From the IMG/VR virus record IMGVR_UViG_2895778652_000001, positions 1 to 64,000 of that record: a stretch of DNA of 64,000 bases; one strand, 5' to 3'. The stretch is from a virus (taxonomy: Duplodnaviria > Caudoviricetes). Positions 1 through 57,443 of this stretch are shown here, one piece after another. A program made the position numbers and the translations under genes. Position 1 is the first letter of the stretch, and every line of letters starts with the position of its first letter. The notes beneath the pieces are model-generated. The model did no database searches. It was not told the origin of the DNA and worked only from the letters and a program-made list of their open reading frames with translations.

Positions 1-8
1 CTCCTCCC

Positions 9-413
9 TTGACTAAGCGCCCCTTTACGCCCTTGCCCCGCGAGATTGAGGATCTGGAACTGGAGGACGGCACAGTGATTCAGGTGCCCTCGCTGCCCTT
101 GCTTCCCCGGGAGCAGGAACTCAAGCAGCGTGACTACGCCAAAGCTGCGGCCCGTTTCGACAGCGCCGCCTCGAAAGTCCTGGCTGCCCTGACGGCCCTG
201 GATGTGTACAGCATGGATGAAGTGGCGCAGATTGCCCAGAGTCCAGAGGGGAGACAGCTCTACGGCCCGGTGCGCGTGACCCGGATCAAAGAAATGTTGG
301 AGCAGCTTCATCAGAAGTGGGTGGGCGCTCCTGACCAGACCCGCACCATTGATGCCGCGCCGTTGCTGGACGTGAAAGCAAAAAAGGATGAACGGGTGCT
401 GGAGCTGAACTGA
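9..413 (+). CDS. Phage protein upstream of the tape measure, possibly a tail assembly chaperone (may be 5' truncated)
   Basis: 134-aa ORF with GC3-rich codons, in the position typical of tail chaperones. No diagnostic motif. Confidence 0.45.
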   Translation: MTKRPFTPLPREIEDLELEDGTVIQVPSLPLLPREQELKQRDYAKAAARFDSAASKVLAALTALDVYSMDEVAQIAQSPEGRQLYGPVRVTRIKEMLEQLHQKWVGAPDQTRTIDAAPLLDVKAKKDERVLELN

Positions 414-469
414 CGCGCCCACATCCGCACCCGCGCCCTGGCACTCGCTGGGGCGTTTATCTTGGGGGC

Positions 470-874
470 ATGACCCTGGACCCTGAGACAAACGCCCGCA
501 TTGAAGCCGAGGAAGCCTACCGGGCGCAGGTGCGACGCACGGGCCAGCGTAAGGGCTTCTGGGAATGGGCGGCGGTACTGATCGGGGTTCCAATCGCCGT
601 CCTGGCCGCGCTGGCGATCTGGGGTTCTCTTGCTCCCTCCACGCCTGACTACCAAACCAGTTTTCTGGTGGCCTGCCAGCGCGGCGTGCGCGAAAAGCTC
701 AAGGCCCCATCTACCGCAAAGTTTGGGAATGAGATAGGCCGTGACGTGCTGACGGTGACGAGTGGTTACCGTCTGAATGGGACAATAGAGGCGCAAAACA
801 GTTTCGGTGCGTTGATTCAATCCACCTATCAATGCACGGGCAGCAGCACAAATCTAGAAATAGACATTGAATAG
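470..874 (+). CDS. Membrane-anchored moron protein
   Basis: Single TM helix (WAAVLIGVPIAVLAALAIW) and an LKAPSTAKF...NSFGA domain. TATCTT lies 6 nt before the ATG (leaderless-type start), and a terminator follows. Confidence 0.7.
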   Translation: MTLDPETNARIEAEEAYRAQVRRTGQRKGFWEWAAVLIGVPIAVLAALAIWGSLAPSTPDYQTSFLVACQRGVREKLKAPSTAKFGNEIGRDVLTVTSGYRLNGTIEAQNSFGALIQSTYQCTGSSTNLEIDIE

Positions 875-903
875 ATCGCCTCTCAGGTTCATAACCATTC
901 ACG

Positions 904-924
904 CCGCCCTTCCGGGCGGTTTTT
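904..924 (+). terminator. Intrinsic terminator
   Basis: CCGCCC-TTCC-GGGCGG followed by TTTTT. Confidence 0.7.
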
Positions 925-948
925 CGTTGCCCTGGAGGTGACTAAACC

Positions 949-3900
949 ATGACCAAAGGTCAATCTGTGGGCGGCCTCTTTATCGATACGGGCCTAGATT
1001 TGACAGGCATCGAGCGTGATCTTCAGAAGGCCCGTCAGTTTGTTGAGCGTACCAACGGTGTGAAGCTGAACATCGACAACCGCGCGGCAAAGACTGCGAT
1101 TGAGCAGGTTAAGGCTGATCTGGCTGCCCTCAAGGGAATGTCAGAGCGGGACGCTCAGGCCCGCGCGCAAGCTGCCCGACTGCTGGGGACGGCTTACAAA
1201 GAGCAGGCTGGGGCCATCCGGGGCGTGACGGCAGAACTCAAAACCCTGTCAGCCCAGTCGGTCCTGACCGCGCGGCTAGGCGCACAGGCAGACCGCGAGG
1301 CGGCGGCGGCAGTCCGGGCACTCGTGACGGCCCGCAAGGAAGCGGCAACACTGGCGGGACGGGCAGGCAACGCCGCAGACCTCGCACGGGCACAGACGGC
1401 TTTACAGGGCATCATGCAAACGCTGGGCAAACTCCAGAACACTGGAACGGTGCGCCTGAAGTTTGATTTGACCAGCGTCAATGCTGAGCTGGCCCGCCTC
1501 CAGGGCCGCTCGGTGTTGCTGAAAGTCAGCTTCTCGAATTTCGACGCGATCAAGAATGACCTGACCACCCTCAAGGGCATGTTGAACGGCCTCGGCGCGA
1601 ACATGCAATACCGCGTGACCGTGAACACCACGGCGCTGAATGCGGTGTACACGCAAATCAACACCCAGATCACGGCCCTTCAGAGCCTGATCAGCCAGCT
1701 CCGCGCTCTCGGTGGTGGTGGGGGCGGCGGTGGCGGCGGCGGACGCGGTGGGCCGGGCATCTCAGCAGCTAATCGGGCACTCCTGGCCGAGCTGGAAGCC
1801 CTGAACAACCAGTGGAAGCGCGGGGACGTAAACGCCGCGCAGTTCGGTTCCCAGCTCACTGCCCTGCAAGGCCGTCTCCGCACGGCGTCTGCCGGGGCCA
1901 CAGCCGGGACAGCCGACTTCAAGGCGCTGGACGCTGGATTGACCCGCCTGACGGGCAGCCTGCGCTCCATTAACACCGACGCCTTCCAGCGGATCAGGAC
2001 CGAGGCTGGAGCCATGCGGGCGGCGTTCGACACGGCCACGGCGGGCGTGCGGCGCAATTCCACCGAGTTCCGGGCCGCATCTGCCGTCTATGCCGCCGAA
2101 AGTGCGCGGATCACCGCCAGTTTGCAGACGATGGCCCGCAGTGGCAACCTGACCACCACGCAGCTTGGTCAGGTCAACCGCGAGATTCAGCGCCTCGCCC
2201 GTGAGCAGAACACCATCCGGGGCGGCATCAATGCGGGTGGCCTGTCCGGCAACATCGTCAACAGCTTCGGGATGCTGCCCGGTCAACTGGGCATGATGGC
2301 TTCCCAGGGCGGCGCGGCCATCAATGCCTTCCAGGGCATCGCCTCTGCTGCTGGCCCTGCTGGGCTGGCTGTGGGTGGGCTTGCCCTGGTGGTGGGCGGC
2401 GCGGCGCTGGCGGCAACCAAAGCGGTCAACGAGTACGCCAAATTTGAGAAGGGGCTGGCGCAGATCGCTACGCTGACTGACAAGACCACCGCCCAGCTCG
2501 GGGACACTGGACGCGCGATCCTGAAGATGAGCGGCGACGTGGGGGCCACCTACACGGATCTCAACGCGGGTCTGTATGACGTGCTGGGTGCAGGGGTCAA
2601 GGGCACTGAGGACATGACGGCCAGCCTGGCGCTGCTCAAGCAGTCCGCTGAACTGGCGCGCGCTGGAGCCACGGAGACTGCCACTGCCACCGACGTGCTG
2701 ACCAGCGTGTTGAACGCCTACAAACTGGAAGCGTCTGACGCCACAATGGTCAGCGATAAACTCTTTAAGGCCGTCGACGACGGCAAGATGAGCTTCTCGC
2801 AACTCGCCCAGAGTCTCGGTATGGTGCTGCCCACCGCCAAAATGGCCGGCCTGAGTCTGGACGAGGTGCTGGGCAGCGTGGCCGCACTGACCGCGCAGGG
2901 CATCAAGCCGTCCTCCGCCATCGAATACCTGCGCTCGGCGCTGACGAACATCATCAAGCCCAGCATGCAGGCAAAAGAGACCGCCAAAGATCTCGGTATC
3001 CAGTTCAATGCCCAGGCGCTGGCAGCCAAGGGCCTCGTGCCATTCCTGCGCGACGTGATCGAGAAGACCGACGGCAACAGCGAGGCGATGGCCCGGCTGT
3101 TCGGCGACGTGGGCGGTCTGCCCGCCGTGACGGGTCTGGCTAACGGCAATTTCGAGCGCCTGACCGCCACCCTGGAAGGGCAGGCGAACGCGGCAGGTAA
3201 AACGGCGGAAGCCTACGGCAAGGTGGCCGCCACCATCAGCCAGAAATCTGATGAGGTTTCGGCCAAATGGAAGTCGCTGTGGGTGAATGTGGGCGAGCTG
3301 TTTGCGTCTACCAAAACCAGCGTGCTGGACGGTATCAACGACATGCTCACGGGCCTGAACGACGTGTTGAGCAAGTTCAATCAGGCGCGTGACCTGAAAA
3401 ACGGCGTCGGCAAGTCGGATCTGCTCAAGCAGAAGGAGGCCAAGGAAGAGGAACTGGCCACGGCCAGAAGCCAATTGGCGTCTGCGCAGAGCGTGGCGGA
3501 TGCGCAGCAACGCGCGACGGGCAAAGTGTCAGAGCAGTTCCAGCCCCGTCTGGACGCCCAGAAAGCCAAGGTGGCTGCGCTGGAAGCCGCAGTGGCAGAC
3601 CTGAGCTTTCAGGTGCAGCAGGAGGCCCAGGCCAACGGCACCTTCACTGGCCCGCTTCAGACCGGTGGCCCAGCGGGTGTGGCCCTGACGGCGGCGGGAG
3701 CCGACGCCCTGGGCGCAAAGGTGGTCGAGGCCGGGGCGGGCAAGCTGGGACAGGTCAGCGCCGACAGCATCGTGAATTACTGCGCCCAGTGGGTGCGGCT
3801 CGTGCTTGGCAAGGCCACACCAGAAGTGGCAGGCAAGATCAATGCCCTGTTCCAGACCGACAGCAATGGGGACGGCAAAACCGAGGCCACCGATGCCGCC

Positions 3901-6900
3901 CGTAACCTGCTCAAGGCGGGTTTTGCTCAGCGGTATAGCGGCACGAAAGATCTTCAGAAGGGCGATGTGGTGTTCTACACGGAGAATGGCCAGAATCACA
4001 CTGGTATCTACATCGGCGACGGCATGGTGCGTGGCAACAACCGCGTGACCTATGCGGCCAACGGTGGCAAATTCGACAAGTATGGCAACCCCACCAGCCC
4101 CGGCGTGAACCCCGTGGGCGATGTGGCGATTGGTAAACTGGGCACGCCCAACTGGATCGTGCGTCCCGGTGACATGCTGCCCGTGCTGGGGGCCAAGGTG
4201 CCCGAGGTCCGGCCCGATGCAGGAGCAGGCGGAGCCGCGTCTGCTGCGCCGATCAAGGCGTTTGAGACCTACGTTAAGGAGGCCAGACGCATTCTGGATC
4301 AGGTGGAGAAGTACGCACCTGGCGGCACCGCGCCCAATTCGGCCAAATGGAACAAGGCCAAAGATGCCCTCAAATCCTTTGGCGATCAGAGCGACATCAC
4401 GGCCCGAGCGCTGGAATATGCTGGACTGGCCACCAAAAAGGCAGATAAAGCCACCTCCCAGTACGGCCAGACCTTTGACCGTTTGAAGGGCCAGCTCGAC
4501 ATCACGCAGAGCCTGGGCGATCTGGGCCGCCCCTCTGCCGAGATCAGCAAGAATCTCAAAGCCATCAGCACCGATGCCCTGGCTGCCGCCAGTGCCGAGA
4601 AGAAACGCAACGGCGAGACGGCGAAGTATCGCGCACTCCTGGATCTGGCCGGAGACGCAGCCAAGAAACTGAAATCCATCACCGACAAGAAGCCCGATCT
4701 CACCCCCACCCAGCGCGAACAGCAGCAACTGGCCGAGCGGCTTGCTGCCGAGAAAATGGTGGCCGACATGCGGAACGCTGGAACGGGCCGCCTGAGCGAC
4801 ATCATCAAGGGCGGTGTCCAGAAAGAGGGTGATCTGGCCCGCTGGGACGGCGCGAAGGCCGAGCTGAAGCGCCGCGCCGATCTGGACACCGAAGCAGGCA
4901 AGGCGGCGAAAAAGGCGCTGGAGGATAACGCCGCATTGATCGGAAAGTTGGCCGAGGAGACCGCCAAAGCTGCTGTGGAACGCTCCAAAGAGCTGGCCCA
5001 GCTTCGCGCCAAATATGCTGCCGAGCGCCGTGACCTGGACGTGCAGGAGGCTGAGGCAGACCTCGCCCGCACGCAGGAACTGAACAAGAAGGAACTGGCC
5101 GATTTCAAGGGCACCGCAGCCCAGAAGGTGGCCCTGATCAAGCGTCAGGGGCAAGATGAATTCAACGCCAGCGAACAGGTTGCCCGTGCCACCCGCGACA
5201 AGGCCATCCGTGCATTCCAGAACGACATCACCAATCCGAATAAGCAGCGCAACATCGATGCTGCAAACCAGACCTATGCCGACACTGTGGTCAAACTCAG
5301 GAACGCCCAGACCAGCGCGGGAAACCAGGCCCTGGAAGACCAGACCAAGGCCATCCAGGATGCCCGCGACGCCTATAGCAAGCTCGCCGATGGGATGCGC
5401 GAGAAGATCGCCACGGGCAAGGTAGAAATCGCGGATCTGACCGCTTACCGCGTGGGCATGGATCAGGCCGCAGACGCTGCCACTAAAGGTGGTGTGGCTC
5501 AAACCAAATATGTCAAAGGTGCGCGCCAGAGCGCCGAGGCCCTCTATCAGGCGGGCATTGACGCCCAGATCGCTGCCGGAATGTTCGCAGACCTGGGCGA
5601 CGGACAGAGCCGGGCCGCAGAGGCAGGCAAGAGTTATGCGGTCAGCCTGGAAGACGCCGTGGCGGCCATGCCAGGAACCATCGAAGGCAACGCCGAGTAC
5701 CTGAAGCTGCTCCAGGACATGGCAAAAGCTGGACAGGTGGCGGGCGGCACGGTGGCCCATATTTCGGACCTGATGCGGGATCAGGCCATCGACGCCCAGA
5801 TTGCCGCTGGAGCTTACGCGGATGTCGCCGACAGCTATGACCGAGCGCAACGGGCCGCACAGGGCTACGTGGCCACCCAGCAAACCGCGCTAGACCAGAT
5901 TCCTGGCAGCACCGAGGCAAACGCTGCTTACGTAAAGGTGCTTCAGGACCTGGAATCCGCTGGAAAACTCGCCCCTGGCACGGTGGATGCGGTCAGCCAA
6001 GCCATCCGTGATCAGGAGGTCATTCTGGCCAACACCACCGCTTGGATGGAGCGCCTGACCACCGAGGCAGGAAAGACCTCCGACGCCCTGGTGGAGCTGG
6101 GCGACACCTCGGGGGCCATGCAGACCTTGCAGGAGGCCCTGGACGAAGCGTGGGCAGCCTCTAACCGGGGCGAGGACGCCGCTGCCACCATCGGCGATCT
6201 GACCGACAAGATCAATGCGCTGGCGAAATCTACTGCCCTTACAGATGGATTCAACCTGTTCTTTTCTGGCCTCTCGGGCACCATCGAGGATCAGATTTCA
6301 CAGGTGGTGGACCAGCTTGATCACGTGACCGATCCGGCGATGGTGGCGCGACTCAAAGCGCTTCTAACTGAGCTGCGCCAAGGCGTGGCCGCCTACGAAG
6401 ACCCCAGTAAGGCCGGGTACGCCCCCAGCAGCAACGGAGGCGGGTTCACGAACACCCAGCCGGGCGGGGCTGAAACAGCGCGGGCTATCGCTGCTGCTCG
6501 TGACCTGACGCCAGCACTCAACACCGAGTTAGATTCCGCAACTCTGGGCGTCGCCATGACGCAGGCAGCGGACCTGCTCGCCTCGGAGGTGGGTCAGGCC
6601 CTGCCCGCTGCCACCCGCAAGGCGCTGCAAGACGGGATCGAGAACGCGCAGGCGTACCAGGATGCGCTGGCCAGCATCACGGCAGACGGGATTCAGGACG
6701 GCGTGAACCGGACACTGGACGCCCCTGCTGCTCCCACGAATGAATTCACCAAATGGTCCGACACCATCTTCGGGCTGGGCAGCGAGGGCCTGAGCGACAC
6801 CACCACCCTGAATGCCCTGACCGAATCTCTGGACACCGCCCGGAAGGCAGGGCGGCTCACCGAGGATGACCTTCAGAACCTGCTGAACCTCATCCGGGAG

Positions 6901-8172
6901 TTCGGATCGGAACCCGACATCAAGCTGACCGAGAAGCTTGACCTGAAGGACATGCAGGACGGTATCAAGCAGCTCACCGAGGATTTCGATTCCGGGAAGA
7001 TTACAGCCCCCGAATTTGTGCAGGGCCTCCAGCAGGCCGGAACCGAGCTGGAAGGGTTTGCGCAGGCGGCCCGTGAGGCGGGGAACCCTGTGCTGGCCCG
7101 GCAGTTCGACGAGCTGGCCGCCAGTCTGCGGGCCATGAATCCTGCCATCGCGGGGGCGCTCCAGGCCATCGGCAAGTTCCAGGAATACGCCGGGTACGTT
7201 CAGCAACTCGCTGGGGCCTTCGCTGCCCTGGACGACGGGACGAGCGGCACAGACATCATCGCCAACATCACAGGCATCGGGAACGCCGCCGGGAAACTGG
7301 TGGACCTCGCCTCCGATGTGAGCAAGATCCTGCTGAACCCGGCAGACATCGGCGCGTGGGTGGGAGCCATCACGAAGGTGGCCAGTTCCATCGCCGACGC
7401 CATCGCCGGATTCAAGAAGGCGCAGGCCGAGGTCAAGAAGCTCAAGGAGGACTTCCAGAAGGACAACCCGCTCCTGAACGGCGGCGATTACCAGAAGACC
7501 TTCACCCGTTCGCGCGGCTTCTTCGCTGACGTGTTCGGTGGCGGTCCAGAGGTGGTCAACCAGATCGACGAGCTGGGCCTGACCTTCGCCAAGACCATGT
7601 CGGCTGCCTTCACGGATGGCATCAAGGGTGGGTTGAAGGACGCCATCCTCAACAACGACTTCTCCAAGTTCAAGGACAAGCTGCATGAAACGGTGTTCGA
7701 TGGGATGCTCAATGGCGTCATCGACCTGTTCATCAACCAAACGCTGCTCAAGGAAATCATCGCCCCGGCGATCAAGGCGTGGTCCGACGCGCTGAAGACG
7801 CCGGGTACCGAGGACGATGTTGCTGCGCTCGCTGGCATCGACGCCGCCGTGAACCAGGTGGACGGGCTGGCCAGCAAGTTCTATACGGACGTGGCCCCCA
7901 GGCTCCAGGGCTACGCCCAGCAATACGGCATCACGGGCACGCCGGACACGCAGGGGGTCAACACCAGCAACCTCAGCACCCTGCCGGAGCCGATCCAGTT
8001 CGCTATTGCGACTCCGCTGCTGGAAGGCATGCGAGGGATCAAGGAAGCGGCGGACAGCTTCAAGGGGTCTGTGGGCAGCCTCGACGAAACATTCAGACGT
8101 GGAGTAAGGATCGAGGTTTCCGGGCCAGCAGGGACGGGCACCGGCTACGTCAGCACCACCGGGGCACTTTAA
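949..8172 (+). CDS. Tail tape measure protein (TP901-like core) with an internal NlpC/P60/CHAP-like hydrolase domain
   Basis: 2407 aa, Ala-rich and helical. TP901-like core (FEKGLAQIATL...VSDKLFKAVDDGKMSFSQLA...LGIQFNA). Internal NYCAQWV...GDVVFY...HTGIYIGDG motif. GGAGG RBS. Confidence 0.93.
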   Translation: MTKGQSVGGLFIDTGLDLTGIERDLQKARQFVERTNGVKLNIDNRAAKTAIEQVKADLAALKGMSERDAQARAQAARLLGTAYKEQAGAIRGVTAELKTLSAQSVLTARLGAQADREAAAAVRALVTARKEAATLAGRAGNAADLARAQTALQGIMQTLGKLQNTGTVRLKFDLTSVNAELARLQGRSVLLKVSFSNFDAIKNDLTTLKGMLNGLGANMQYRVTVNTTALNAVYTQINTQITALQSLISQLRALGGGGGGGGGGGRGGPGISAANRALLAELEALNNQWKRGDVNAAQFGSQLTALQGRLRTASAGATAGTADFKALDAGLTRLTGSLRSINTDAFQRIRTEAGAMRAAFDTATAGVRRNSTEFRAASAVYAAESARITASLQTMARSGNLTTTQLGQVNREIQRLAREQNTIRGGINAGGLSGNIVNSFGMLPGQLGMMASQGGAAINAFQGIASAAGPAGLAVGGLALVVGGAALAATKAVNEYAKFEKGLAQIATLTDKTTAQLGDTGRAILKMSGDVGATYTDLNAGLYDVLGAGVKGTEDMTASLALLKQSAELARAGATETATATDVLTSVLNAYKLEASDATMVSDKLFKAVDDGKMSFSQLAQSLGMVLPTAKMAGLSLDEVLGSVAALTAQGIKPSSAIEYLRSALTNIIKPSMQAKETAKDLGIQFNAQALAAKGLVPFLRDVIEKTDGNSEAMARLFGDVGGLPAVTGLANGNFERLTATLEGQANAAGKTAEAYGKVAATISQKSDEVSAKWKSLWVNVGELFASTKTSVLDGINDMLTGLNDVLSKFNQARDLKNGVGKSDLLKQKEAKEEELATARSQLASAQSVADAQQRATGKVSEQFQPRLDAQKAKVAALEAAVADLSFQVQQEAQANGTFTGPLQTGGPAGVALTAAGADALGAKVVEAGAGKLGQVSADSIVNYCAQWVRLVLGKATPEVAGKINALFQTDSNGDGKTEATDAARNLLKAGFAQRYSGTKDLQKGDVVFYTENGQNHTGIYIGDGMVRGNNRVTYAANGGKFDKYGNPTSPGVNPVGDVAIGKLGTPNWIVRPGDMLPVLGAKVPEVRPDAGAGGAASAAPIKAFETYVKEARRILDQVEKYAPGGTAPNSAKWNKAKDALKSFGDQSDITARALEYAGLATKKADKATSQYGQTFDRLKGQLDITQSLGDLGRPSAEISKNLKAISTDALAAASAEKKRNGETAKYRALLDLAGDAAKKLKSITDKKPDLTPTQREQQQLAERLAAEKMVADMRNAGTGRLSDIIKGGVQKEGDLARWDGAKAELKRRADLDTEAGKAAKKALEDNAALIGKLAEETAKAAVERSKELAQLRAKYAAERRDLDVQEAEADLARTQELNKKELADFKGTAAQKVALIKRQGQDEFNASEQVARATRDKAIRAFQNDITNPNKQRNIDAANQTYADTVVKLRNAQTSAGNQALEDQTKAIQDARDAYSKLADGMREKIATGKVEIADLTAYRVGMDQAADAATKGGVAQTKYVKGARQSAEALYQAGIDAQIAAGMFADLGDGQSRAAEAGKSYAVSLEDAVAAMPGTIEGNAEYLKLLQDMAKAGQVAGGTVAHISDLMRDQAIDAQIAAGAYADVADSYDRAQRAAQGYVATQQTALDQIPGSTEANAAYVKVLQDLESAGKLAPGTVDAVSQAIRDQEVILANTTAWMERLTTEAGKTSDALVELGDTSGAMQTLQEALDEAWAASNRGEDAAATIGDLTDKINALAKSTALTDGFNLFFSGLSGTIEDQISQVVDQLDHVTDPAMVARLKALLTELRQGVAAYEDPSKAGYAPSSNGGGFTNTQPGGAETARAIAAARDLTPALNTELDSATLGVAMTQAADLLASEVGQALPAATRKALQDGIENAQAYQDALASITADGIQDGVNRTLDAPAAPTNEFTKWSDTIFGLGSEGLSDTTTLNALTESLDTARKAGRLTEDDLQNLLNLIREFGSEPDIKLTEKLDLKDMQDGIKQLTEDFDSGKITAPEFVQGLQQAGTELEGFAQAAREAGNPVLARQFDELAASLRAMNPAIAGALQAIGKFQEYAGYVQQLAGAFAALDDGTSGTDIIANITGIGNAAGKLVDLASDVSKILLNPADIGAWVGAITKVASSIADAIAGFKKAQAEVKKLKEDFQKDNPLLNGGDYQKTFTRSRGFFADVFGGGPEVVNQIDELGLTFAKTMSAAFTDGIKGGLKDAILNNDFSKFKDKLHETVFDGMLNGVIDLFINQTLLKEIIAPAIKAWSDALKTPGTEDDVAALAGIDAAVNQVDGLASKFYTDVAPRLQGYAQQYGITGTPDTQGVNTSNLSTLPEPIQFAIATPLLEGMRGIKEAADSFKGSVGSLDETFRRGVRIEVSGPAGTGTGYVSTTGAL
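5545..6015 (+). repeat. Two tandem ~77-aa (231 bp) repeats in the tape measure
   Basis: IDAQIAAG...PG..E.NA.Y.K.LQD...AG..A.GTV...RDQ occurs twice; GACGCCCAGAT at 5560 and 5791. Confidence 0.8.
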
Positions 8173-14458: not shown

Positions 14459-15433
14459 TTAGTCCGCTGCGTCCTCTGCCACGTCCCAGCTCTTGAGCGC
14501 ATCGGTGAGCTTCGTGCTGCTCAACTTCGCATAGGTTTCTGTCGTTGAAATGCTGCTGTGCCGCAGATGCCTCGCCACCACGAAGATGTCGCCGCACTGG
14601 TCCAGGAGCAGCGTGGCCGCCGAGTGCCGCAGACCGTGGACGTGGCGCTTCTCGTATTTGACCCCGGTGCGGCTGCACAGACTCCGCAAAACCAGCCGCA
14701 CGGTCTTCTGGTTCTGCCAGGCCAGCACCGGCCCTTCCCTGTCCTCCTCCGGCACCTGGGCCAGCGACTCGGTCAGCGCTGCGGTGAGGTGAACCGTCGC
14801 CGTCTTCCGGCCTTTGCCGGTCACCACCATCACCCGCTTCAGGAGGTCAATGTGCTGCCACCTTAAACCGATCAGCTCAGACATCCTCAGCGCCCCATGC
14901 GCGCCCAGGAGCAAGAACCGCGTTTCGTCCGCGTCCGCTAGGGCGAGCAGGGCATTGATGTCCTCTCGCGAGTACGCCTCCCGCTTCGTCCACTTGTCCT
15001 CAGTGTCATGGGCGCGAGGGGTGTCGGCGAAAGGATCACCTTCCAGCACGTTGGCCCACCGCAGGGCGCGGTACAGGGCGCGGGCGGCGCTGCGCCTGGA
15101 GTTGATGGTGCCGGGCTTCATCCCCTGCCGCTCCAGCCCCCGGATGTAGCCGATGGTCAGGTCCGTATCGTGTTCGGTCAGCCGCTTCCAGCCGAGGGGC
15201 AGCGCGTAGGCGAGATAGGCCCGCACGCCAGTCGTGTACCCGCGCATCGTGTGCGGGCTGGTGTGCGCCCCGCCGCGCCCGTAGGCCAGCAGGTTGTGCA
15301 TGGTCAGGCTGACGAGCAGATCGATATCGCCACTCTTCAGCGCCTTCCTGACCGTCTTCTCCCGTTTCTCGCGGAGCAGGGTGTCCCAGTCATAGGGCAT
15401 GGACTCCGCCGGAGCGGTTGTATTCTCTTTCAT
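14459..15433 (-). CDS. Tyrosine recombinase (XerC/D-like resolvase or integrase)
   Basis: Catalytic residues in GALRMSE, GKGRK, HGLRH and HLRHSSISTTETY; GGGAGG RBS before ATG 15433. Confidence 0.93.
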   Translation of the reverse strand: MKENTTAPAESMPYDWDTLLREKREKTVRKALKSGDIDLLVSLTMHNLLAYGRGGAHTSPHTMRGYTTGVRAYLAYALPLGWKRLTEHDTDLTIGYIRGLERQGMKPGTINSRRSAARALYRALRWANVLEGDPFADTPRAHDTEDKWTKREAYSREDINALLALADADETRFLLLGAHGALRMSELIGLRWQHIDLLKRVMVVTGKGRKTATVHLTAALTESLAQVPEEDREGPVLAWQNQKTVRLVLRSLCSRTGVKYEKRHVHGLRHSAATLLLDQCGDIFVVARHLRHSSISTTETYAKLSSTKLTDALKSWDVAEDAAD

Positions 15434-15500
15434 GCTGTGCCTCCCGTAAGGCGTAGGTGGCCCTGGGTGCTCTAACACCGCGAGGGTCTACTCATTTAGC

Positions 15501-49486: not shown

Positions 49487-49617
49487 AAAAATTACTGCTA
49501 ACGGTCCTCTGTCTGATCCTGGCGACTGCTCCTGCTGGTGCAATCAAACTGAAGGGCAGTGATGGGTCACAGGGCAGCCCTTCCAGGATCGGCAACGATC
49601 CCTGCCACGGCTGCTGA
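49483..49617 (+). CDS. 44-aa secreted propeptide (candidate signalling peptide)
   Basis: GGAGG precedes the ATG. Sec signal MKKLLLTVLCLILATAPAGA (A-x-A site) followed by IKLKGSDGSQGSPSRIGNDPCHGC. Confidence 0.75.
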   Translation: MKKLLLTVLCLILATAPAGAIKLKGSDGSQGSPSRIGNDPCHGC

Positions 49618-49620
49618 GTC

Positions 49621-50184
49621 TTACTTTTCTTTGAACGCGGCCAGCGCGCCGACCAACTGACCCATAACCCGGCCCCGGCCAGCAGCAAGCTGCGCGGGCA
49701 GTGCGAACAATCTGCCGTCGTCCAGTTCGGTGATGACGATTCCTTCCAGAGTGCTGTCTGGGTCAATTTGGACAATATGCCCGGCAGGAACTGTCCACTC
49801 TCCGTGGAGAGGACTTTTTAATTCCAACTCGATGAGGTTACGAGAATCCTCACCGTGCCCCCAGGGCTTTGGCCGGAACGTCCTGAAAGACCGCTGCTGC
49901 GGCAGAGGGATGTGGAACAACTTCCACGCCTCTTTGTCGGTAATTCCGAGCGTGCCTATGAAACGCTCAGCGGTGGCCTGCCGCATGCGGGCAATGTCCA
50001 GCTCCCCGGTGATGTACATGCCGAGGGTGCTGAGCGCGATATTGGATTTCTTTGCGAAGTCCTCTAGGAAAATCTCTCTGGAATCCAGAATGTGCTGAAA
50101 CACTTGCCCGCGATGCTGAGCCGTCTCAACACTCTCTGGGAGTGGAGTTGCGCGGCGTCGCGTGTAGCGTTTTGTGTCAGTCAT
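49621..50184 (-). CDS. CI-like phage repressor
   Basis: N-terminal XRE-like HTH (LEDFAKKSNIALSTLGMYITG) and a C-terminal S24-like beta domain; divergent from a cro-like gene. Confidence 0.75.
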   Translation of the reverse strand: MTDTKRYTRRRATPLPESVETAQHRGQVFQHILDSREIFLEDFAKKSNIALSTLGMYITGELDIARMRQATAERFIGTLGITDKEAWKLFHIPLPQQRSFRTFRPKPWGHGEDSRNLIELELKSPLHGEWTVPAGHIVQIDPDSTLEGIVITELDDGRLFALPAQLAAGRGRVMGQLVGALAAFKEK

Positions 50185-50396
50185 AGCACTTCCTATCTGC
50201 AAGTTTACCAGTAGCTGGGAGAATTATACAAGGGTCCATGTGAAGTAAACCCCGTTGCCAGCGCAAAAATACGCGGCAAGCTAAGTGTTCTGATCGGTAT
50301 TAGCCACAAGCTGATTAAGTGGTGGCGCGTTTCACCGTCTTCCAAAAATCCCCAGTTAGTGGTATTTTGTTGTCATGATTTCAGTAGCTGGTGAAA
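50185..50396. promoter_or_regulatory. cI/cro divergent control region with three operator-like sites
   Basis: (C)CAG-N4-TGGT sites at 50205-50224, 50348-50365 and 50378-50395. Promoters TTGTAT/TAAACT (leftward) and TTCCAA/TATTTT (rightward). Confidence 0.7.
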
Positions 50397-50695
50397 AGGT
50401 ACGCGCTGCCCGCTTGGCGGCGGGTATCCGATCTGTCCAGGCAGCAGCCCGCGCAGCGCACTTGAACTACAAGACGATTGAGGCATTTGAGGGGCGTGGC
50501 GACGCCAAGGTACCCACCAATCCAAAAATGGAAACCCTGCTCGCGCTGGCTGCTGCCTACGGCTGTAGCCCACGCGATTTTACCGAGAACCCCGAGGAGT
50601 GGGATCGTGCAGCCCAAGCACTGGGGCTGCCAGCCACTCTTGGCGCAGTCGTAGGAGGTCAGTACATAGAACCCGCCCTCAACCCCACGTCCTAA
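50375..50695 (+). CDS. Cro-like XRE HTH regulator
   Basis: GEKVRAARLAAG...YKTIEAFEGRG...NPKMETLLALAAAYGC. Confidence 0.82.
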   Translation: MISVAGEKVRAARLAAGIRSVQAAARAAHLNYKTIEAFEGRGDAKVPTNPKMETLLALAAAYGCSPRDFTENPEEWDRAAQALGLPATLGAVVGGQYIEPALNPTS

Positions 50696-50705
50696 AAAAG
50701 AAGTT

Positions 50706-50730
50706 GCCCCAGGGGTCAGATCCCAGGGGC
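50706..50730 (+). promoter_or_regulatory. Conserved leader hairpin, copy 1
   Basis: GCCCCAGGGGTCAGATCCCAGGGGC; 24/25 identical to 58081-58105. Confidence 0.6.
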
Positions 50731-50747
50731 GTTTTGGAGGTTCTCGT

Positions 50748-51455
50748 ATGACCAGCATTGTAGCAGTTCAAGAATTCCAGGGCGAGGCACGGGCGGACAG
50801 CCGCCATCTCGCTGCCCGCATGGAAAACAAGCACAAAAGCCTGATGAGTCTCATTGATGATTATGCCGAGGATTTTAGTCGCCTTGGACACCTGCGATTT
50901 GAAATGGAGACTGTTAAAAACAGCGTTGGAGCCGCAAATAAATCCCGTCATGCCCTCCTGAACGAAGACCAGTGCTACTTCCTCCTGACTCTGGTTCGCA
51001 ACAGCGACGCCACCGTCCCCATGAAGCGCGAGCTGGTCCAGGCGTTCGGGGAGTACCGCCGCCGCGTCGCCCTGGCCCCTGCGCCGATCCTGCCCACCGA
51101 TCCTCTGGAACTGCTGGAGCTGAGCCTGCGCGGCATGAAGCAGACCCGTGAGGAGGTCCGGGTGTTGCAGGCCACCACCGCCGCGCTGGAGGTCCGACTG
51201 GACAATACGCCCATTGCCATGCACCCCGAGATGGAGGCCACCATCTACGCGCTGTGTCAGGAGCTGGCCCGCGTCATCCCCGGCGGGTACAGCGCCGCGT
51301 ACCGGGCGTTCAAGAGCAAATTCGGGGAAGCGGGCCTGCCTCTGGCGAAATACACCAGTCTGCCCGCCCGCCGCTTCCCAGAGGGCTGTGGCTATCTGCG
51401 TGGCCTGATCGCGCAGCACAGCCAGGATGGCCGCTTGATTGAGGCGAGGGCATGA
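50748..51455 (+). CDS. rha: Rha-family regulator / antirepressor with an ORF6C-like C-terminus
   Basis: ADSRHLAARMENKHKS...LLNEDQCYFLLTLVRNS...KRELVQAF. Confidence 0.85.
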   Translation: MTSIVAVQEFQGEARADSRHLAARMENKHKSLMSLIDDYAEDFSRLGHLRFEMETVKNSVGAANKSRHALLNEDQCYFLLTLVRNSDATVPMKRELVQAFGEYRRRVALAPAPILPTDPLELLELSLRGMKQTREEVRVLQATTAALEVRLDNTPIAMHPEMEATIYALCQELARVIPGGYSAAYRAFKSKFGEAGLPLAKYTSLPARRFPEGCGYLRGLIAQHSQDGRLIEARA

Positions 51456-53235: not shown

Positions 53236-53598
53236 ATGTCCGAGAAAGCCCCGCCCCTCACGCACGACACCATCGGAGAGCTGGAAGCTGGCGGTATCGG
53301 CTACGCGATCAACGCCGCCATTGAGGAAATGATGGCCGACTGCTCGCGCCGCCCCGGCCTGGAAAAGGCCCGCACGGTCACCATCACCCTGAAGTTCAAA
53401 CCCCGCGCCAGCACCCTGGATCAGGGCCGCGCCGGGCTGAACAGCGTGGGCGTCCTGGCCGACGTCAAGACCAGCTCGCCGCCACGCGCCAGCAGCGGTG
53501 AATTCCTGAACGTCGCCGAGAGCATTGGCGCAGACGGCAAGCCCGTGATTCAGGCCACCTTCGCCCAGATGCCGCTGCTGCGTGCCGGGAGCAACTGA
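53236..53598 (+). CDS. YfdP-like prophage protein
   Basis: KARTVTITLKFKP; paired with the downstream DUF2303-like gene. Confidence 0.55.
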   Translation: MSEKAPPLTHDTIGELEAGGIGYAINAAIEEMMADCSRRPGLEKARTVTITLKFKPRASTLDQGRAGLNSVGVLADVKTSSPPRASSGEFLNVAESIGADGKPVIQATFAQMPLLRAGSN

Positions 53599-54383
53599 TG
53601 AGCCACCTCGACAGCACCGCCATTCAAGACGTTGAACGCCTGACCAAGGAAGCCAACGGCATCCTGATCGAAGATGCCCGCCCCGGCAGCACCCACCTGA
53701 TCCGCAATCAAGAAGGGGAGCCTTACCTGTTCGTGGTGGAACTGGACCACCACAACACCACCGTGTTTGACCTGCCCAGCCTGAAAATCACTGCCGAGGC
53801 CAGCCACGAGGCCGGGGTGCTGGAGGCGATTTACGTCTCGGACGGCCAGATCGTGGCGCTATGCGAGGACGACGACATCGATCAGCGCTTTACCGCCGTG
53901 CTGAACCTGCCCCTGCACCCGGCCTTCGTGCGGGTGGCCTCGTGGAAGCAGCTCACCGCACTGACCCAGAAGGAACTGACCCGCCTGCTGCGCACCGAGT
54001 TGCGGGACCACGTGGATCCCACGGTGATCGACACATTCAGCGCCCTGAAGTTCACGAACAACCGGGAGCAGACCAGCGAGGTGCGCCCGGCCAGCAACGC
54101 CCTGGACAGCAGCATCCGCCAGAGCGTGGCAGACCGCAACGGGGGCAGCGCCCCGGAGGTCATCAAGCTCAACGTGCCCGTCTACGACATCCCTGACGCG
54201 CGCGGTGACCTGTACGAGGTCAACGTCTACGTCGAATTCGATCACGACGCGGGCAAGTTCCTGCTGCTGACCGTCCACGGTGACCTGCGTGCGGCCCAGG
54301 AAGAGGCCGTCTCGGCCCTGATCGCGGATCTGAAGGACCACGCCCAGGCCCGCTGGCCCGTGTTGTACGGCAAGCCTTCCTAA
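53598..54383 (+). CDS. YfdQ/DUF2303-like prophage protein
   Basis: LTQKEL, PEVIKLNVPVY and a C-terminal PVLYGKP. Confidence 0.55.
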   Translation: MSHLDSTAIQDVERLTKEANGILIEDARPGSTHLIRNQEGEPYLFVVELDHHNTTVFDLPSLKITAEASHEAGVLEAIYVSDGQIVALCEDDDIDQRFTAVLNLPLHPAFVRVASWKQLTALTQKELTRLLRTELRDHVDPTVIDTFSALKFTNNREQTSEVRPASNALDSSIRQSVADRNGGSAPEVIKLNVPVYDIPDARGDLYEVNVYVEFDHDAGKFLLLTVHGDLRAAQEEAVSALIADLKDHAQARWPVLYGKPS

Positions 54384-54809
54384 CACCTTCCCCGTGGATG
54401 GCCGTCCCACGTTAATCCCGGCCACCAAAGGTCCCACCGAGGACCGGGCAGCATGACAACATGAGCTTCAAGGCGTCCCAGCAGGATAGGGACGCTGTGC
54501 AGGCCCCACCGGCTCAGCCGGAGCGGCGCGTGAAGACGGAAACCACTGCCCCGTGGCAGCAGGTCCGGCGAGACACGGCCAAAGGTCCCTGCACCCCTGA
54601 GAACCCGCGAACTCCCAGCCTCTTCCTCGGCGCTGGCCCGCGCGGGGCGTTTCCCTTGACGCGAGACAAGGAGGCCGCCAATCCCAGCCAGGGCGGTCGT
54701 CGCGGACTCTGCCGAGTTGACGGCATAGGCAGGCCCGCCGCACGGCCCACATGCCCGATTCCACGAAGACGCAATACCCACGCCTCAGCCTTTGCGCTGG
54801 GGCGGTGTC

Positions 54810-54885
54810 GGGAGCGAAACCCCAATGGATGGGGATAGGTCCGAGTGAAGACCGAAAACAGCGGGTTCGACTCCCGCCGCTCCCG
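54810..54885 (+). tRNA. tRNA-like element with a non-canonical anticodon arm
   Basis: Acceptor GGGAGCG/CGCTCCC; D arm CCCC-AATGGAT-GGGG; T arm GCGGG-TTCGACT-CCCGC; 8-nt loop CGAGTGAA. Confidence 0.6.
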
Positions 54886-55596
54886 AATTCCAGCGCTGCG
54901 GAATTGACCGCAGGGCACCCGCCTCTGACAGAGTGACTGCTGAGGCACCACGCCCCTTACGGGGGGCGCACGCGCGTAGCAGGTCCGGCAGGCATTCCCG
55001 ATCAGGAGGGCTTGAACCACCGGACTGGACGACAGGGAATTTCACGCCCTACCCCGTGACTGTGAGGCGCGTCATCCGGCGTTCGTGGAGGGCCACCGTC
55101 CGCCATTGGCTGCCCTGTTCCAAGTAGCGTCAGGGCGCTTCTTTCCGCTGCGCTGGATGTCCCTGGGCGTCCACTGCGGCTTTTCCCCACCCTCGGCCAG
55201 AACATCCGGCCATCAACCGCCAGCGTCAATTAAGACACTGGCTTAAAGGCGCAATGCGCCGCGCGTCCCGCGCTCGCCACACACCGCGACAGGGAGGCCC
55301 ACCCGGCCAGCAGGGTGACGTTCGGCTCCGTTTGAGAGAAAACGGGCGACAGTCGGCATTCTCTGCCAGAGGCCAGGGCCGCGCGCCCCATGCGCGCACA
55401 GACCCTGCATTGCGTAGCAGCAAGCCCGGACAGGACAACACAGGTGGCCCTCTGCGCTGGACCTGTCCGGGCCTTACCGGCAGTCCCTGGTTGAGCCAGG
55501 AGCCGCCGAACCTCAGCCTCACCGGGAGGTCAAGCCCGGCCCGCCGCCGCAGTCTTTTGCACGGCGAAAGGAGATCCCATGAAGTAGTCCAGCGCT

Positions 55597-55682
55597 TGCG
55601 GGTGTGCCAGCAGAACGGCTAGCTGCTGGCCAATCACGGCGGACCCAGGTCCTTGCTGGTTCGAGTCCAGCGCCCGCCGCCA
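55597..55682 (+). tRNA. tRNA-like element (T arm, acceptor and encoded CCA; atypical 5' half)
   Basis: GCTGG-TTCGAGT-CCAGC-GCCCGCC-G-CCA; 5' TGCGGGT; 8-bp GCCAGCAG/CTGCTGGC arm. Confidence 0.5.
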
Positions 55683-55696
55683 ACAAAGGAGTGTTC

Positions 55697-55999
55697 ATGC
55701 CAACAACCCCCCAAACTGTCCGCAACGCCAGAGACGCCGCCGCCATCACCCACGCGGCGCTGCGGGCTGAACCCGTCGCGGACGAACTCACCCACGTCCT
55801 CCACGCCATCACCGTCCAGGCCGCTGACAAGAAGACGTGCCTGACCGATTACCTCATTCCGGCCCGCGTGCGCGTCCGGCTGGTGGAGGAGCTGCACGCG
55901 CTGCGGTTCGAGGCGTGGGCCAGCCTGCCCTTCCCCGAGGCCACCAAGGCGCGGCTGAACGTCAACTGGCCGGAAAACCCGGAGGCCCTGGATGTCTGA
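55697..55999 (+). CDS. Hypothetical protein (paralog of the next gene)
   Basis: AAGGAG RBS; RLNVNWPENP. Confidence 0.6.
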   Translation: MPTTPQTVRNARDAAAITHAALRAEPVADELTHVLHAITVQAADKKTCLTDYLIPARVRVRLVEELHALRFEAWASLPFPEATKARLNVNWPENPEALDV

Positions 56000-56417
56000 C
56001 CATCAGGAACGCGGCACGATCACGGGTCAGGATCTGGCCCGCCGTGCCTTCGCGGCCCGCAGGCTGCGCAAAGAGGAGCTGGCCGCAGATGCGCTGGTTC
56101 ATCAACTTGGATTCGTGGCGTTTCCGGTAGCGTGCCTCGGCCAGACGAGCTGCGACATTCACGTGCCGCCCGCCCTGGCCATAAAGGTGGCGAGTCAAGC
56201 CAACAGTCTCGGCTGCGAGGTCATTTACTGGCACCGAGGCTTTGCCGAAACGCCCACCGGACGCCTGACCCTGAGCTGGCCGGATGAACCGTACGACGGC
56301 GGCCCCCGGAACCGCCCACCCCCACCCGCCGGGCCGTTCTATGGCCAGTCCGAGGGCGGCAGAGCATTCTGGGACGCCCTACGGGACACCTTTGGTTTGA
56401 GGAAGCGCCCCGTATAA
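55992..56417 (+). CDS. Hypothetical protein (paralog of the previous gene)
   Basis: GGAGG RBS; RLTLSWPDEP. Confidence 0.6.
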   Translation: MSDHQERGTITGQDLARRAFAARRLRKEELAADALVHQLGFVAFPVACLGQTSCDIHVPPALAIKVASQANSLGCEVIYWHRGFAETPTGRLTLSWPDEPYDGGPRNRPPPPAGPFYGQSEGGRAFWDALRDTFGLRKRPV

Positions 56418-56474
56418 CTTTCTGCCGGAATTGCACCGTTCGGTATAACCGTGCAAAAGCCGTTTTCCTCGGTT

Positions 56475-57443
56475 TCACCAGTCCAGATTCACAGCCCGGT
56501 CCTGCTGCCTCGCATGATTGACGTACAGCGAACTCGTCTCCACCGAGGCGTGGCGCAGGTGGTCACGCACCTCCAGCAGATCGCGTGTCTGGCGATAGAC
56601 CTCGGTGCCTGCTGTGTGGCGCAGGCCGTGAACCTCGCGCCCCACATACCGCACGCCAGTCACCTTGCACAGCTCGCGCAGGCTGTCGCTGATGCCTTTT
56701 CGGGTCTCCCAATTCAGGACGCGCGGCCCGAGCTTCGGCGTCATCTCTACCCAGCGCGAGAGTGCCACGCCGCACCTCCGCGACACCGGCACCTCCTGAC
56801 GCTTCTGCCGCTTGCCGGTCACGGTCAGGTAAGGCCGCTCCGCCGTCAGGTGTAGGTCTGCCCGCATCAAACCCGCCATCTCCCCCACCCTCAGCCCACA
56901 GTGCGCACCCAGCAACACCATGACCTTCTGTTGTGGATCCGCCTGTCTCAGTAGCAACTCAATGTCCGCCTTGCTGTAGGGCTGGCGCTTCTGCCACGCC
57001 GGAACCGGATCGGGGGCGGCCCGCACGTCCGTCAGCGGGGCCGCGTCGCTCGCTCCTGACCACCGGAGCGCTGCGAAGAGCGCCCGCGCTGCCGCCAGTC
57101 GCACCCGCACGCTGCCTGGGGCCAGCCCGGAGGCTTCCAGATGGCGGGCGTACCCGTACCCGTCATTCGGACGGGGCCGCAGCAGGCTCATTCCGCCAGG
57201 GCCAGCCCAGTTCAGGAAGGCGGACAGTCCGGCGCGGTAGCTCATCAGGGTGTTCTGGCTGACCCGCGCGCCTGCACTTCCCCTGGTGACCAGAAATGCC
57301 TCGGTCAGATCCCACAGGCCCGCCTCGTCCCGCTCGGCAGCCCAGCGCAGGGCCTCTCGCCTCAGCGCGTCGGGTTCCAGCCGGGCAAGCCGTTCCGAGC
57401 GGGCGGCAAGGTCCAGTCGGGCGGCCATCAGATCAAGAGACAT
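56475..57443 (-). CDS. Tyrosine recombinase, paralog of 14459-15433
   Basis: GLRVGE, GKRQK, HGLRH, HLRHASVETSSLY. Confidence 0.93.
   Translation of the reverse strand: MSLDLMAARLDLAARSERLARLEPDALRREALRWAAERDEAGLWDLTEAFLVTRGSAGARVSQNTLMSYRAGLSAFLNWAGPGGMSLLRPRPNDGYGYARHLEASGLAPGSVRVRLAAARALFAALRWSGASDAAPLTDVRAAPDPVPAWQKRQPYSKADIELLLRQADPQQKVMVLLGAHCGLRVGEMAGLMRADLHLTAERPYLTVTGKRQKRQEVPVSRRCGVALSRWVEMTPKLGPRVLNWETRKGISDSLRELCKVTGVRYVGREVHGLRHTAGTEVYRQTRDLLEVRDHLRHASVETSSLYVNHARQQDRAVNLDW

Follow-up and report, generated by a model that had tools for sequence, protein, structure and literature searches.

The window analysed here, 64,000 nucleotides (nt) of a phage-like replicon from the genus Deinococcus, holds within its early region a non-coding interval of 1313 nt on the plus strand (54384-55696), in which two elements with the shape of transfer RNA (tRNA) are embedded. 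Element 1 (54809-54885) has a cloverleaf form and element 2 (55638-55682) is a mini-tRNA in front of the next gene, and both belong to a pair of structures that is conserved and covarying in related replicons. The interval is tentatively read as an array of short RNA modules, in which non-decoding tRNA mimics would act as punctuation and tRNA-processing enzymes would make the cuts, a reading to which we assign a little less than an even chance.

Conservation of the Elements in Related Replicons

The comparison with other Deinococcus genomes was anchored on the gene of a tyrosine recombinase with an N-terminal SAM-like domain (56475-57443, minus strand; PF00589, 4.9e-13; PF02899, 8.3e-12), which lies about 0.8 kb downstream of the interval and on the opposite strand, inside the plus-strand early region. 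At E <= 1e-70, homologues of this recombinase were found in 33 of the 111 Deinococcus genomes, frequently on contigs with a length of 88-96 kb, and 39 stretches of at most 5.2 kb each were taken from the 3' side of such homologues. Many of these stretches feature 0.7-1.5 kb without codon periodicity. The T-loop word GGTTCRANYCC is present in 15 of the 39, with 23 copies on the strand equivalent to the plus strand of the window versus 3 on the other, while about 1.4 per strand would be expected from the genome-wide rate. The relatives carry one or two elements per locus, on the same strand as in the window and with a hairpin in front; the elements combine an acceptor stem with a T-arm and lack a functional anticodon arm.

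Two types of element can be distinguished. Type A shows the order leader hairpin, short spacer, 6-bp acceptor, linker of about 12-15 nt, T-arm and other acceptor strand, and it ends in a discriminator and a CCA-like triplet, directly followed by a Shine-Dalgarno sequence and a start codon. The encoded tail behind the discriminator reads CCA in the window and in the genomes G085 and G025, CCC in G015 and G072, TCA in G095b and CCT in G106. Type B, which lies upstream, begins with the leader hairpin CGCGCCC..GGGCGCG, followed by TCAY and a 7-bp acceptor; its middle part consists of either one small hairpin or a full D arm and an anticodon-like arm, and a T-arm comes next. The spacer between leader hairpin and mimic is frequently TCAY-ended. 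In all eight loci that were read, type A stands directly before the Shine-Dalgarno sequence and start codon, and it is followed by genes of different families, which favours a general punctuation over a gene-specific riboregulator.

The pairing of both types was followed in plain MAFFT alignments of five species each, in which compensatory changes affect both the acceptor and the T stems. For type A, all 55 cells are paired and three pairs are changed on both sides, compared to at most 60% paired cells in the slid controls. For type B, 96% of the cells are paired, four pairs are changed on both sides, and 2 of 500 shuffles were equally good; the slid controls of types A and B taken together gave 18-67%. 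Covariance models were then built from the relatives alone, the window being excluded. Model R1 (type A) finds element 2 at 55632-55685 with 26.1 bits (E of 5e-4 in 261 kb and 3e-6 in 1.45 kb), and model R2 (type B) finds element 1 at 54785-54888 with 26.9 bits, both with the leader hairpins in register. Thus, the elements of the window are divergent members of a conserved pair. Across the 111 Deinococcus genomes, R1 detected only recombinase-adjacent loci, with six matches at E <= 1e-4.

The sequence between the two elements is conserved as well in part of the relatives. Between G015 and G085, this non-coding stretch is 72.4% identical over 942 nt, with 7 of 25 gaps being multiples of three, whereas the adjoining recombinase gene reaches 67.9% over 938 nt; the stretch is therefore under constraint in that clade. 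The distance between both elements ranges from about 370 to 985 nt in the relatives, and the non-coding region of G119 is split by a gene.

In G010 (L110:3868-3941) and G025 (L112), ARAGORN at default reports a 'tRNA-Ser(CGA)' of 74-75 nt upstream of type A, which features C33 and no long variable arm. This looks like a cloverleaf mimic of the element 1 family, which annotation pipelines would mis-call as a tRNA.

Comparison With tRNAs and Known RNA Families

In both elements, the acceptor stem is stacked on a T-arm, whose loop is of the GGTTCGANTCC type. In element 1, an acceptor of 7-8 bp is combined with the D stem CCCC/GGGG, an 8-nt anticodon loop (CGAGUGAA) without U33 on a 4-bp stem and the T-arm GCGGG-TTCGACT-CCCGC, and no CCA is encoded. 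It scores 24.1 bits against the tRNA family of Rfam (RF00005; 54811-54884; gathering cut-off 29) and is found by ARAGORN only at 95% of the threshold or below, with a 4-base 'anticodon'. The cloverleaf is at the same time the minimum free energy (MFE) fold of element 1, with a frequency of 0.67 and a z of -4.15, z-scores giving the MFE against dinucleotide shuffles. Its leader is a 9-bp hairpin of the MFE fold (54781-54804, plus strand), which R2 aligns to the leader hairpin of the type B relatives; leader and element together (54777-54886) reach a z of -3.71, a value matched by none of 200 shuffles. Element 1 is similar to a genuine viral tRNA-Arg(CCT) in the acceptor, the D-loop and the T-arm. 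The word formed by its T-arm and acceptor occurs in eight viral contigs, none of which is homologous beyond the word; in four of them ARAGORN finds a tRNA, which is an ordinary decoder in three and has a 4-base anticodon in the fourth. A possible degenerate third module, in which a poor stem comes after the leader word GGCGCGTCAT, lies at 55050-55106 on the plus strand, where R2 gives a weak match (9.0 bits; E of 0.1 over 1.45 kb).

Element 2 comprises the acceptor GGCGG(A)/(C)CCGCC, an 11-nt linker, the T-arm GCTGG-TTCGAGT-CCAGC and the tail G-CCA, which ends 14 nt ahead of the next start codon; the Shine-Dalgarno sequence AAGGAG begins 4 nt past the CCA (AAGGAG and ATG at 55686-55699, plus strand). 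In the register of R1 it has no anticodon arm. Below the threshold, Rfam assigns 20.9 bits of its tRNA-Sec model to 55598-55677 (cut-off 47). The leader hairpin of element 2 (55606-55630, plus strand) has 8 bp and a 9-nt loop in the MFE fold, and G015, G072, G085, G025 and G095b have a similar hairpin in front of their type A elements. The T-arm and acceptor word of element 2 gave no match in viral contigs. Besides, 20 bases of the element (55659-55678) are identical to a protein-coding gene on another contig of the same genome (G000:C50:79637-79656), which by its translation we take to be ATP phosphoribosyltransferase-like; the match is probably due to chance in a G+C-rich genome, though it stands beside a recombinase.

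ARAGORN at default reports neither a tRNA nor a transfer-messenger RNA (tmRNA) gene in the 64-kb window. At 95% of the threshold, both elements are two of only three tRNA matches in 64 kb, and at 70% two overlapping, unconvincing tmRNA calls appear ('Tag not identified'). The combination of a 7-nt loop, U33 and a 5-bp stem, which characterizes a tRNA, is found in neither element 1 nor element 2. The initial annotation had spoken of tRNA-like elements, and this name is appropriate for real near-threshold tRNA shapes; it does not extend to ordinary phage tRNAs, as both lie below the cut-offs and their anticodon loop is abnormal or absent. At gathering score, none of the 4227 Rfam models matched in the 64 kb. 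At E <= 10, only two tRNA-clan matches and chance-level matches to small RNAs were obtained within 54200-55800; a YrlA-type Y RNA, for which Rfam to our knowledge holds a model, is absent among them. Beyond these, the Infernal/Rfam scan that had been proposed as a check matched no family, GOLLD and ROOL included, even at E <= 10.

It could be supposed that both elements are working decoders of an unusual kind, element 2 being a tRNA-Val(CAC) and element 1 decoding four bases. Relaxed ARAGORN indeed reads 55601-55682 as a mismatched tRNA-Val(CAC), a register that provides element 2 with U33, the anticodon CAC and G37 and in which GCCA is encoded as in the host tRNA genes, while element 1 is otherwise a clean cloverleaf. 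The same register, however, leaves two of five anticodon-stem pairs and one acceptor pair mismatched and requires a 10-nt variable region, the relatives of element 2 are devoid of any anticodon arm, the loop of element 1 has 8 nt and no U33, and the host already carries a tRNA-Val(CAC). Accordingly, we give hardly any credence to decoding.

Coding Status and Folding of the Interval

The interval is delimited upstream by a 261-amino acid gene of PHROG family 210 (phrog_210; 53598-54383) and downstream by a 100-amino acid gene, whose ATG at 55697 is preceded by the strong AAGGAG. It is truly non-coding and exists as a single copy in its genome. Codon-position G+C is flat over 54384-55696, each of the three positions having 0.54-0.80, while the pattern of this genome is seen in the flanking genes, i.e., a high third-position (0.86-0.96) and a low second-position (0.3-0.5) G+C content; the coding signal is back from 55700 on, in the downstream gene. 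The ten longest open reading frames (ORFs) inside the interval, on both strands, gave no Pfam or PHROG match at E <= 0.1. Both results agree with the statement of the initial annotation that no convincing ORF led by a ribosome-binding site is present. Its placement of the interval in an early operon holds as well, since genes on the same strand encode a Rha-type regulator, a Bro-N/ORF6C protein, a replication initiator or helicase-loader-like protein and an exonuclease.

All hairpins and repeats named earlier were recovered at their places. The description as densely structured, on the contrary, was overstated: in 120-nt windows, a few islands fold better than shuffled sequence, and the mean z on the plus strand is -0.78 for 20 non-coding windows versus +0.20 in the flanking coding sequence (56 windows). 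Strong folding is limited to islands at 54760-54940, 55180-55300 and 55360-55540, and folding over 54520-54700 is worse than that of the shuffles, with positive z. The second island (55180-55299, plus strand) is composed of small G+C-rich hairpins and has a 120-nt z of -4.73 on the plus and -3.06 on the minus strand; its inner 71 nt alone give a z of only -1.11. Among the hairpins, GGCGTCCC/GGGACGC at 54472-54496 (plus strand; the pair GCGTCCC/GGGACGC of the initial annotation lies at 54473-54495) encloses a 9-nt loop, in which both listed metagenome differences (54484 and 54488) are located. CTGCGG/CCGCAG is found at 54896-54914 and CCGTTT/AAACGG at 55320-55337. The perfect 11-bp inverted repeat GCCCGGACAGG/CCTGTCCGGGC with a 27-nt spacer (55424-55472, listed without strand) forms a longer hairpin on the minus strand, with a z of -5.63 compared to -2.82 on the plus strand. 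Through G-U pairs it reaches about 21 pairs on the minus strand (55419-55477), and this bias hints at a minus-strand RNA or at a role on the DNA level.

The repeats are AGCAGGTCCGGC (54558 and 54978), CCAAAGGTCCC (54425 and 54579) and TCCAGCGC (54889 and 55588), the last one being a common word in the window with 28 copies in 64 kb versus 5.75 expected. Their common core AGGTCC occurs six times in the interval on the plus strand (54429, 54561, 54583, 54837, 54981 and 55647), two copies being inside the tRNA-like elements, versus 0.55 expected (p of 2.4e-5, uncorrected for the 976 hexamers), and a protein may bind to this word.

These data bear on the other proposal of the initial annotation, an undescribed large RNA, by which the interval would be one structured molecule resembling GOLLD or ROOL, about 1.3 kb in size. 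The long absence of genes on the operon strand, many G+C-rich hairpins, complementary words at long range (54889-54903 with 55143-55157) and the patchy conservation of the whole stretch in the relatives are all in line with it. Nevertheless, neither the missing Rfam match at E <= 10 nor the patchy z-scores, positive over 54520-54700, suit a single ornate fold, and the layout is variable and interrupted, given the inter-element length of about 370-985 nt and the gene inside the region in G119. Additionally, the pieces shared with other species are short and separable, and for most of the interval there is no homologue in 125 family genomes. Accordingly, the proposal is not supported and is considered very unlikely.

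Sequence Pieces Shared With Other Species

Several short pieces of the interval recur elsewhere. At the 5' boundary, a hairpin (54392-54423, plus strand) includes the word GATGGCCNNCCNNNGNNAATCCCGGCCACC and two stems, stem 1 at 54392-54396/54406-54410 and stem 2 at 54398-54403/54418-54423; the loop can pair with a conserved downstream word, resulting in a possible H-type pseudoknot. The word is found in 3 of 125 family genomes (G000, which is the genome of the window itself, G034 and, twice, G119) and not once in the reversed control. Stem 1 is paired in all three sequences, with two of five pairs changed on both sides, while stem 2 is invariant and thus uninformative on pairing either way. 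Metagenome relatives that lack the two upstream genes are joined directly to 54389/54391. As a pattern, the 5' motif gave no match in viral contigs and five in genome contigs, of which the single Deinococcus one is G034. The four metagenome matches of the motif all look chance-like, e.g., the end of a groES-like gene.

Further downstream, the word CATGACA (54452-54458, plus strand) is common to the non-coding elements of G119, G036 and G034. A shared block of 80 nt, CAGCCAGGG..GCCGAG..GGCATAGGCAG..CATGCC (54674-54755, plus strand), is present in the non-coding elements of G036 and G119; it was obtained by local alignment with G036 and includes the hairpin TGCCG-AGTTGA-CGGCA. Its pattern occurs in 3 of 364 Deinococcota genomes, with none in the reversed control and none in viral contigs. 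A 1-nt indel between G119 and G036 shifts the frame, which argues against coding, and no convincing consensus fold emerged over four sequences (one compensatory pair of 22). Towards the end of the interval, the hairpin CCGGG-AGGTCAAG-CCCGG (55522-55539, plus strand) also exists in G015 and G085, with an invariant stem and no covariation. The 12-nt word CCCATGAAGTAG behind GGGAGG is likewise present at the matching place in G085 (L113), where the flanks have diverged. Both are the only small pieces that the window has of the inter-element stretch of G015 and G085. In the window, the place of this word is 55568-55587 (plus strand), where a strong Shine-Dalgarno sequence AAGGAG with the two-codon mini-ORF ATG-AAG-TAG can be read.

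Broader searches added little. Distant blastn of the 1313 nt against a phage database gave no match, and in family-wide blastn the 5' motif was the sole exception among short G+C-rich chance-like matches. Viral contigs were also scanned with the proteins of both flanking genes and of the recombinase as seeds, with nothing confirmed, and Rfam found nothing at E <= 1 on the loci of G119 and G034. Metagenome contigs cover parts of the interval at 80-100% likeness; the joints 54448>54757, 54804>55370 and 54884>55370 seen in such contigs were set aside with only 27-28 letters on one side. In G034, the locus L024 (G034:C20:26000-33000) is a decayed copy: its phrog_210 gene is broken by one TGA and one TAG (residues 112-260 match), and about 2 kb behind it lack codon periodicity.

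The Circular Replicon

Bases 1-4621 of the contig of the window repeat exactly at 88365-92985 (G000:C161), which identifies the replicon as a circle of 88,364 bp. Phage early and replication genes, as well as genes of structural size, share the strand of the interval. In G119, the homologous element was assembled twice, 94,414 bp apart, on a contig of 188,830 bp. Together with the contigs of 88-96 kb mentioned above, this looks like a family of large (about 90 kb) circular phage-like replicons, i.e., phage-plasmids or excised phages.

The replicon of the window encodes two tyrosine recombinases and a 2407-amino acid ORF (949-8172). The second recombinase (about 14459-15478, minus strand) is 38% identical to that at 56475-57443, with whose gene a spurious plus-strand ORF (56451-56855) overlaps. 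Neither the minus-strand recombinase gene nor the circular state of the replicon had been noticed in the initial annotation. At 49600-50900, between a minus-strand ORF of 193 amino acids (49621-50202) and the first plus-strand early genes, the G+C content falls to 0.51-0.56; this is likely a divergent regulatory region of the replicon.

Proposed Mechanism and Alternative Explanations

The helix of acceptor and T-arm is the part of a tRNA that is recognized by RNase P, RNase Z and the CCA-adding enzyme, as known from work on minihelices. A processing scheme can be proposed for the interval in these terms. An early transcript would read across it, and RNase P would cut 5' of each mimic, the upstream RNA keeping a hairpin that protects its 3' end; in such a model, the leader hairpin in front of each mimic would be the expected 3'-end protection of the RNA left by RNase P. 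A 3' tRNA-processing activity would trim behind the mimic. The products would be an RNA of about 750 nt from between the mimics and a separate messenger RNA for the gene that follows. The second alternative of the initial annotation, RNAs set free as an array by tRNA-processing enzymes, fits the tRNA-shaped elements conserved and covarying in related replicons as well as their location on the operon strand; transcription, the cuts and any role of the products are the conjectural part of it. A more far-reaching version is also conceivable, but appears rather unlikely to us: the mini-tRNAs of the approximately 90-kb Deinococcus replicons, which often encode CCA, would bracket a conserved RNA of 0.4-1 kb, which RNase P would set free as a large phage RNA of a new kind, and the mimics themselves might be functional, e.g., as decoys or sponges for tRNA-targeting defences or tRNA enzymes.

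Several observations weigh against the array. The covariation rests on five related sequences per type, and kinship inflates such tests. The elements of the window are weak (26-27 bits); G000 yields no R1 match at E <= 1e-4, and such scores would not be significant in a whole-genome search. Element 2 alone, with a z of -1.25 to -1.63, folds barely better than its shuffles. The locus of the closest recombinase homologue (G092; 78% identity) is mostly coding and features no T-loop word. Moreover, no consensus promoter or terminator was found in 53500-56500, and none of the sequencing runs listed as holding the sequence is recorded as RNA (one low-share run is guessed to be RNA). Finally, most of the 1.3 kb is without a homologue in the 125 family genomes, which leaves about 70% of the interval outside the comparison.

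This last point would equally suit a decaying phage tRNA cluster mixed with mosaic junk and devoid of a present function, as would the position of both elements just under the tRNA thresholds, the resemblance of element 1 to a viral tRNA-Arg(CCT), the parts that fold no better than shuffled sequence and the visibly decayed copy of the locus in G034 with stops in its upstream gene. Decay, however, does not account for the same reduced shapes at homologous positions in at least ten other replicons, with compensatory changes and a strand bias, nor for a non-coding stretch that is at least as conserved in the relatives as the neighbouring gene. In addition, no canonical decoder exists among the relatives that were read. 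As divergent members of a conserved pair, the elements do not appear to be freshly decayed tRNA genes, and we regard decay as an improbable explanation of the locus.

A further point against an RNA array is the constant closeness to the recombinase gene, which fits a role on the DNA level. Every element locus lies 0.5-2.5 kb from a recombinase homologue in fixed orientation, and the tRNA-shaped elements and AGGTCC repeats could represent recombination or maintenance sites of the neighbouring enzyme, i.e., an attP copying the 3' end of a tRNA, a multimer-resolution site or an attC-like folded single-strand site. The dyad symmetry of a T-arm is of the kind used by tRNA-targeting integrases. Six direct copies of AGGTCC exist, a circular replicon would leave an attP intact, and element 2 shares its 20 bases with the coding gene on contig C50. 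Nevertheless, the 51 host tRNA genes include none that is similar to element 1 or element 2. The type A word of T-arm and acceptor is single-copy within the sequence examined of G085, G015, G072 and G025, and thus there is no attB, attL or attR twin; host-tRNA-derived att scars were rejected, with neither a host tRNA match nor a second copy. A canonical tRNA lies within 1.5 kb at only 2 of 29 recombinase loci. One or two genes separate the elements from the recombinase gene, and the covariation of acceptor strands 30-60 nt apart is left unexplained by a duplex protein-binding site, though a folded single-strand site would explain it. A DNA site is seen as unlikely.

Relation to Known Systems and Implications

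Besides the 'tRNA punctuation' model of mitochondria, the device nearest to the proposed array is that of the t-elements. The t-elements of plant mitochondria are non-decoding tRNA-like folds between or beside coding regions, which are thought to set RNA ends via RNase P and RNase Z and in which acceptor and T-arm are conserved (Forner et al., 2007; PMC1920247). The elements of the window and their relatives are likewise non-decoding, structure-conserved tRNA-like folds beside coding regions. These t-elements are organellar and their cuts are reported to have been mapped experimentally, whereas the present elements belong to a bacterial phage-like replicon, are known from sequence alone and possess a leader hairpin of their own and often a CCA-like tail.

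With the tRNA genes and clusters of phages (RF00005), the elements share a full (element 1) or partial cloverleaf, the GGTTCGANTCC T-loop word and the location in a phage genome; they differ in falling below the family cut-off and the ARAGORN default, in an abnormal or absent anticodon loop and in relatives reduced to acceptor and T-arm. Mimics without an anticodon also serve as handles for tRNA enzymes in the tRNA-like domain of tmRNA and in the mascRNA/MALAT1 3' end signal. These have in common with the present elements an acceptor/T-arm mimic devoid of an anticodon arm and a CCA end, but there is no sequence relation, and ARAGORN at default gave no tmRNA. GOLLD and ROOL are comparable as non-coding RNA candidates in phage genomes near tRNA-like sequences, while the interval has a modular and patchy structure and not a single ornate fold. 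A literature search, supplementary files being outside its reach, revealed no paper that deals with tRNA-like elements of Deinococcus prophages, phage-plasmids or prophages generally.

The locus represents a conserved non-coding region that is listed in no RNA library and resides in little-studied large circular phage-like elements. With regard to annotation, near-threshold 'pseudo-tRNA' calls in the gaps of phage genomes can be selected structures and not decay. If the proposed array is real, phage replicons in bacteria would punctuate long transcripts with reduced tRNA shapes, a strategy documented mainly in organelles. The RNAs released would then be candidate regulators or counter-defence RNAs, and the mimics would provide compact, portable RNA-processing signals for the genetics of Deinococcus.

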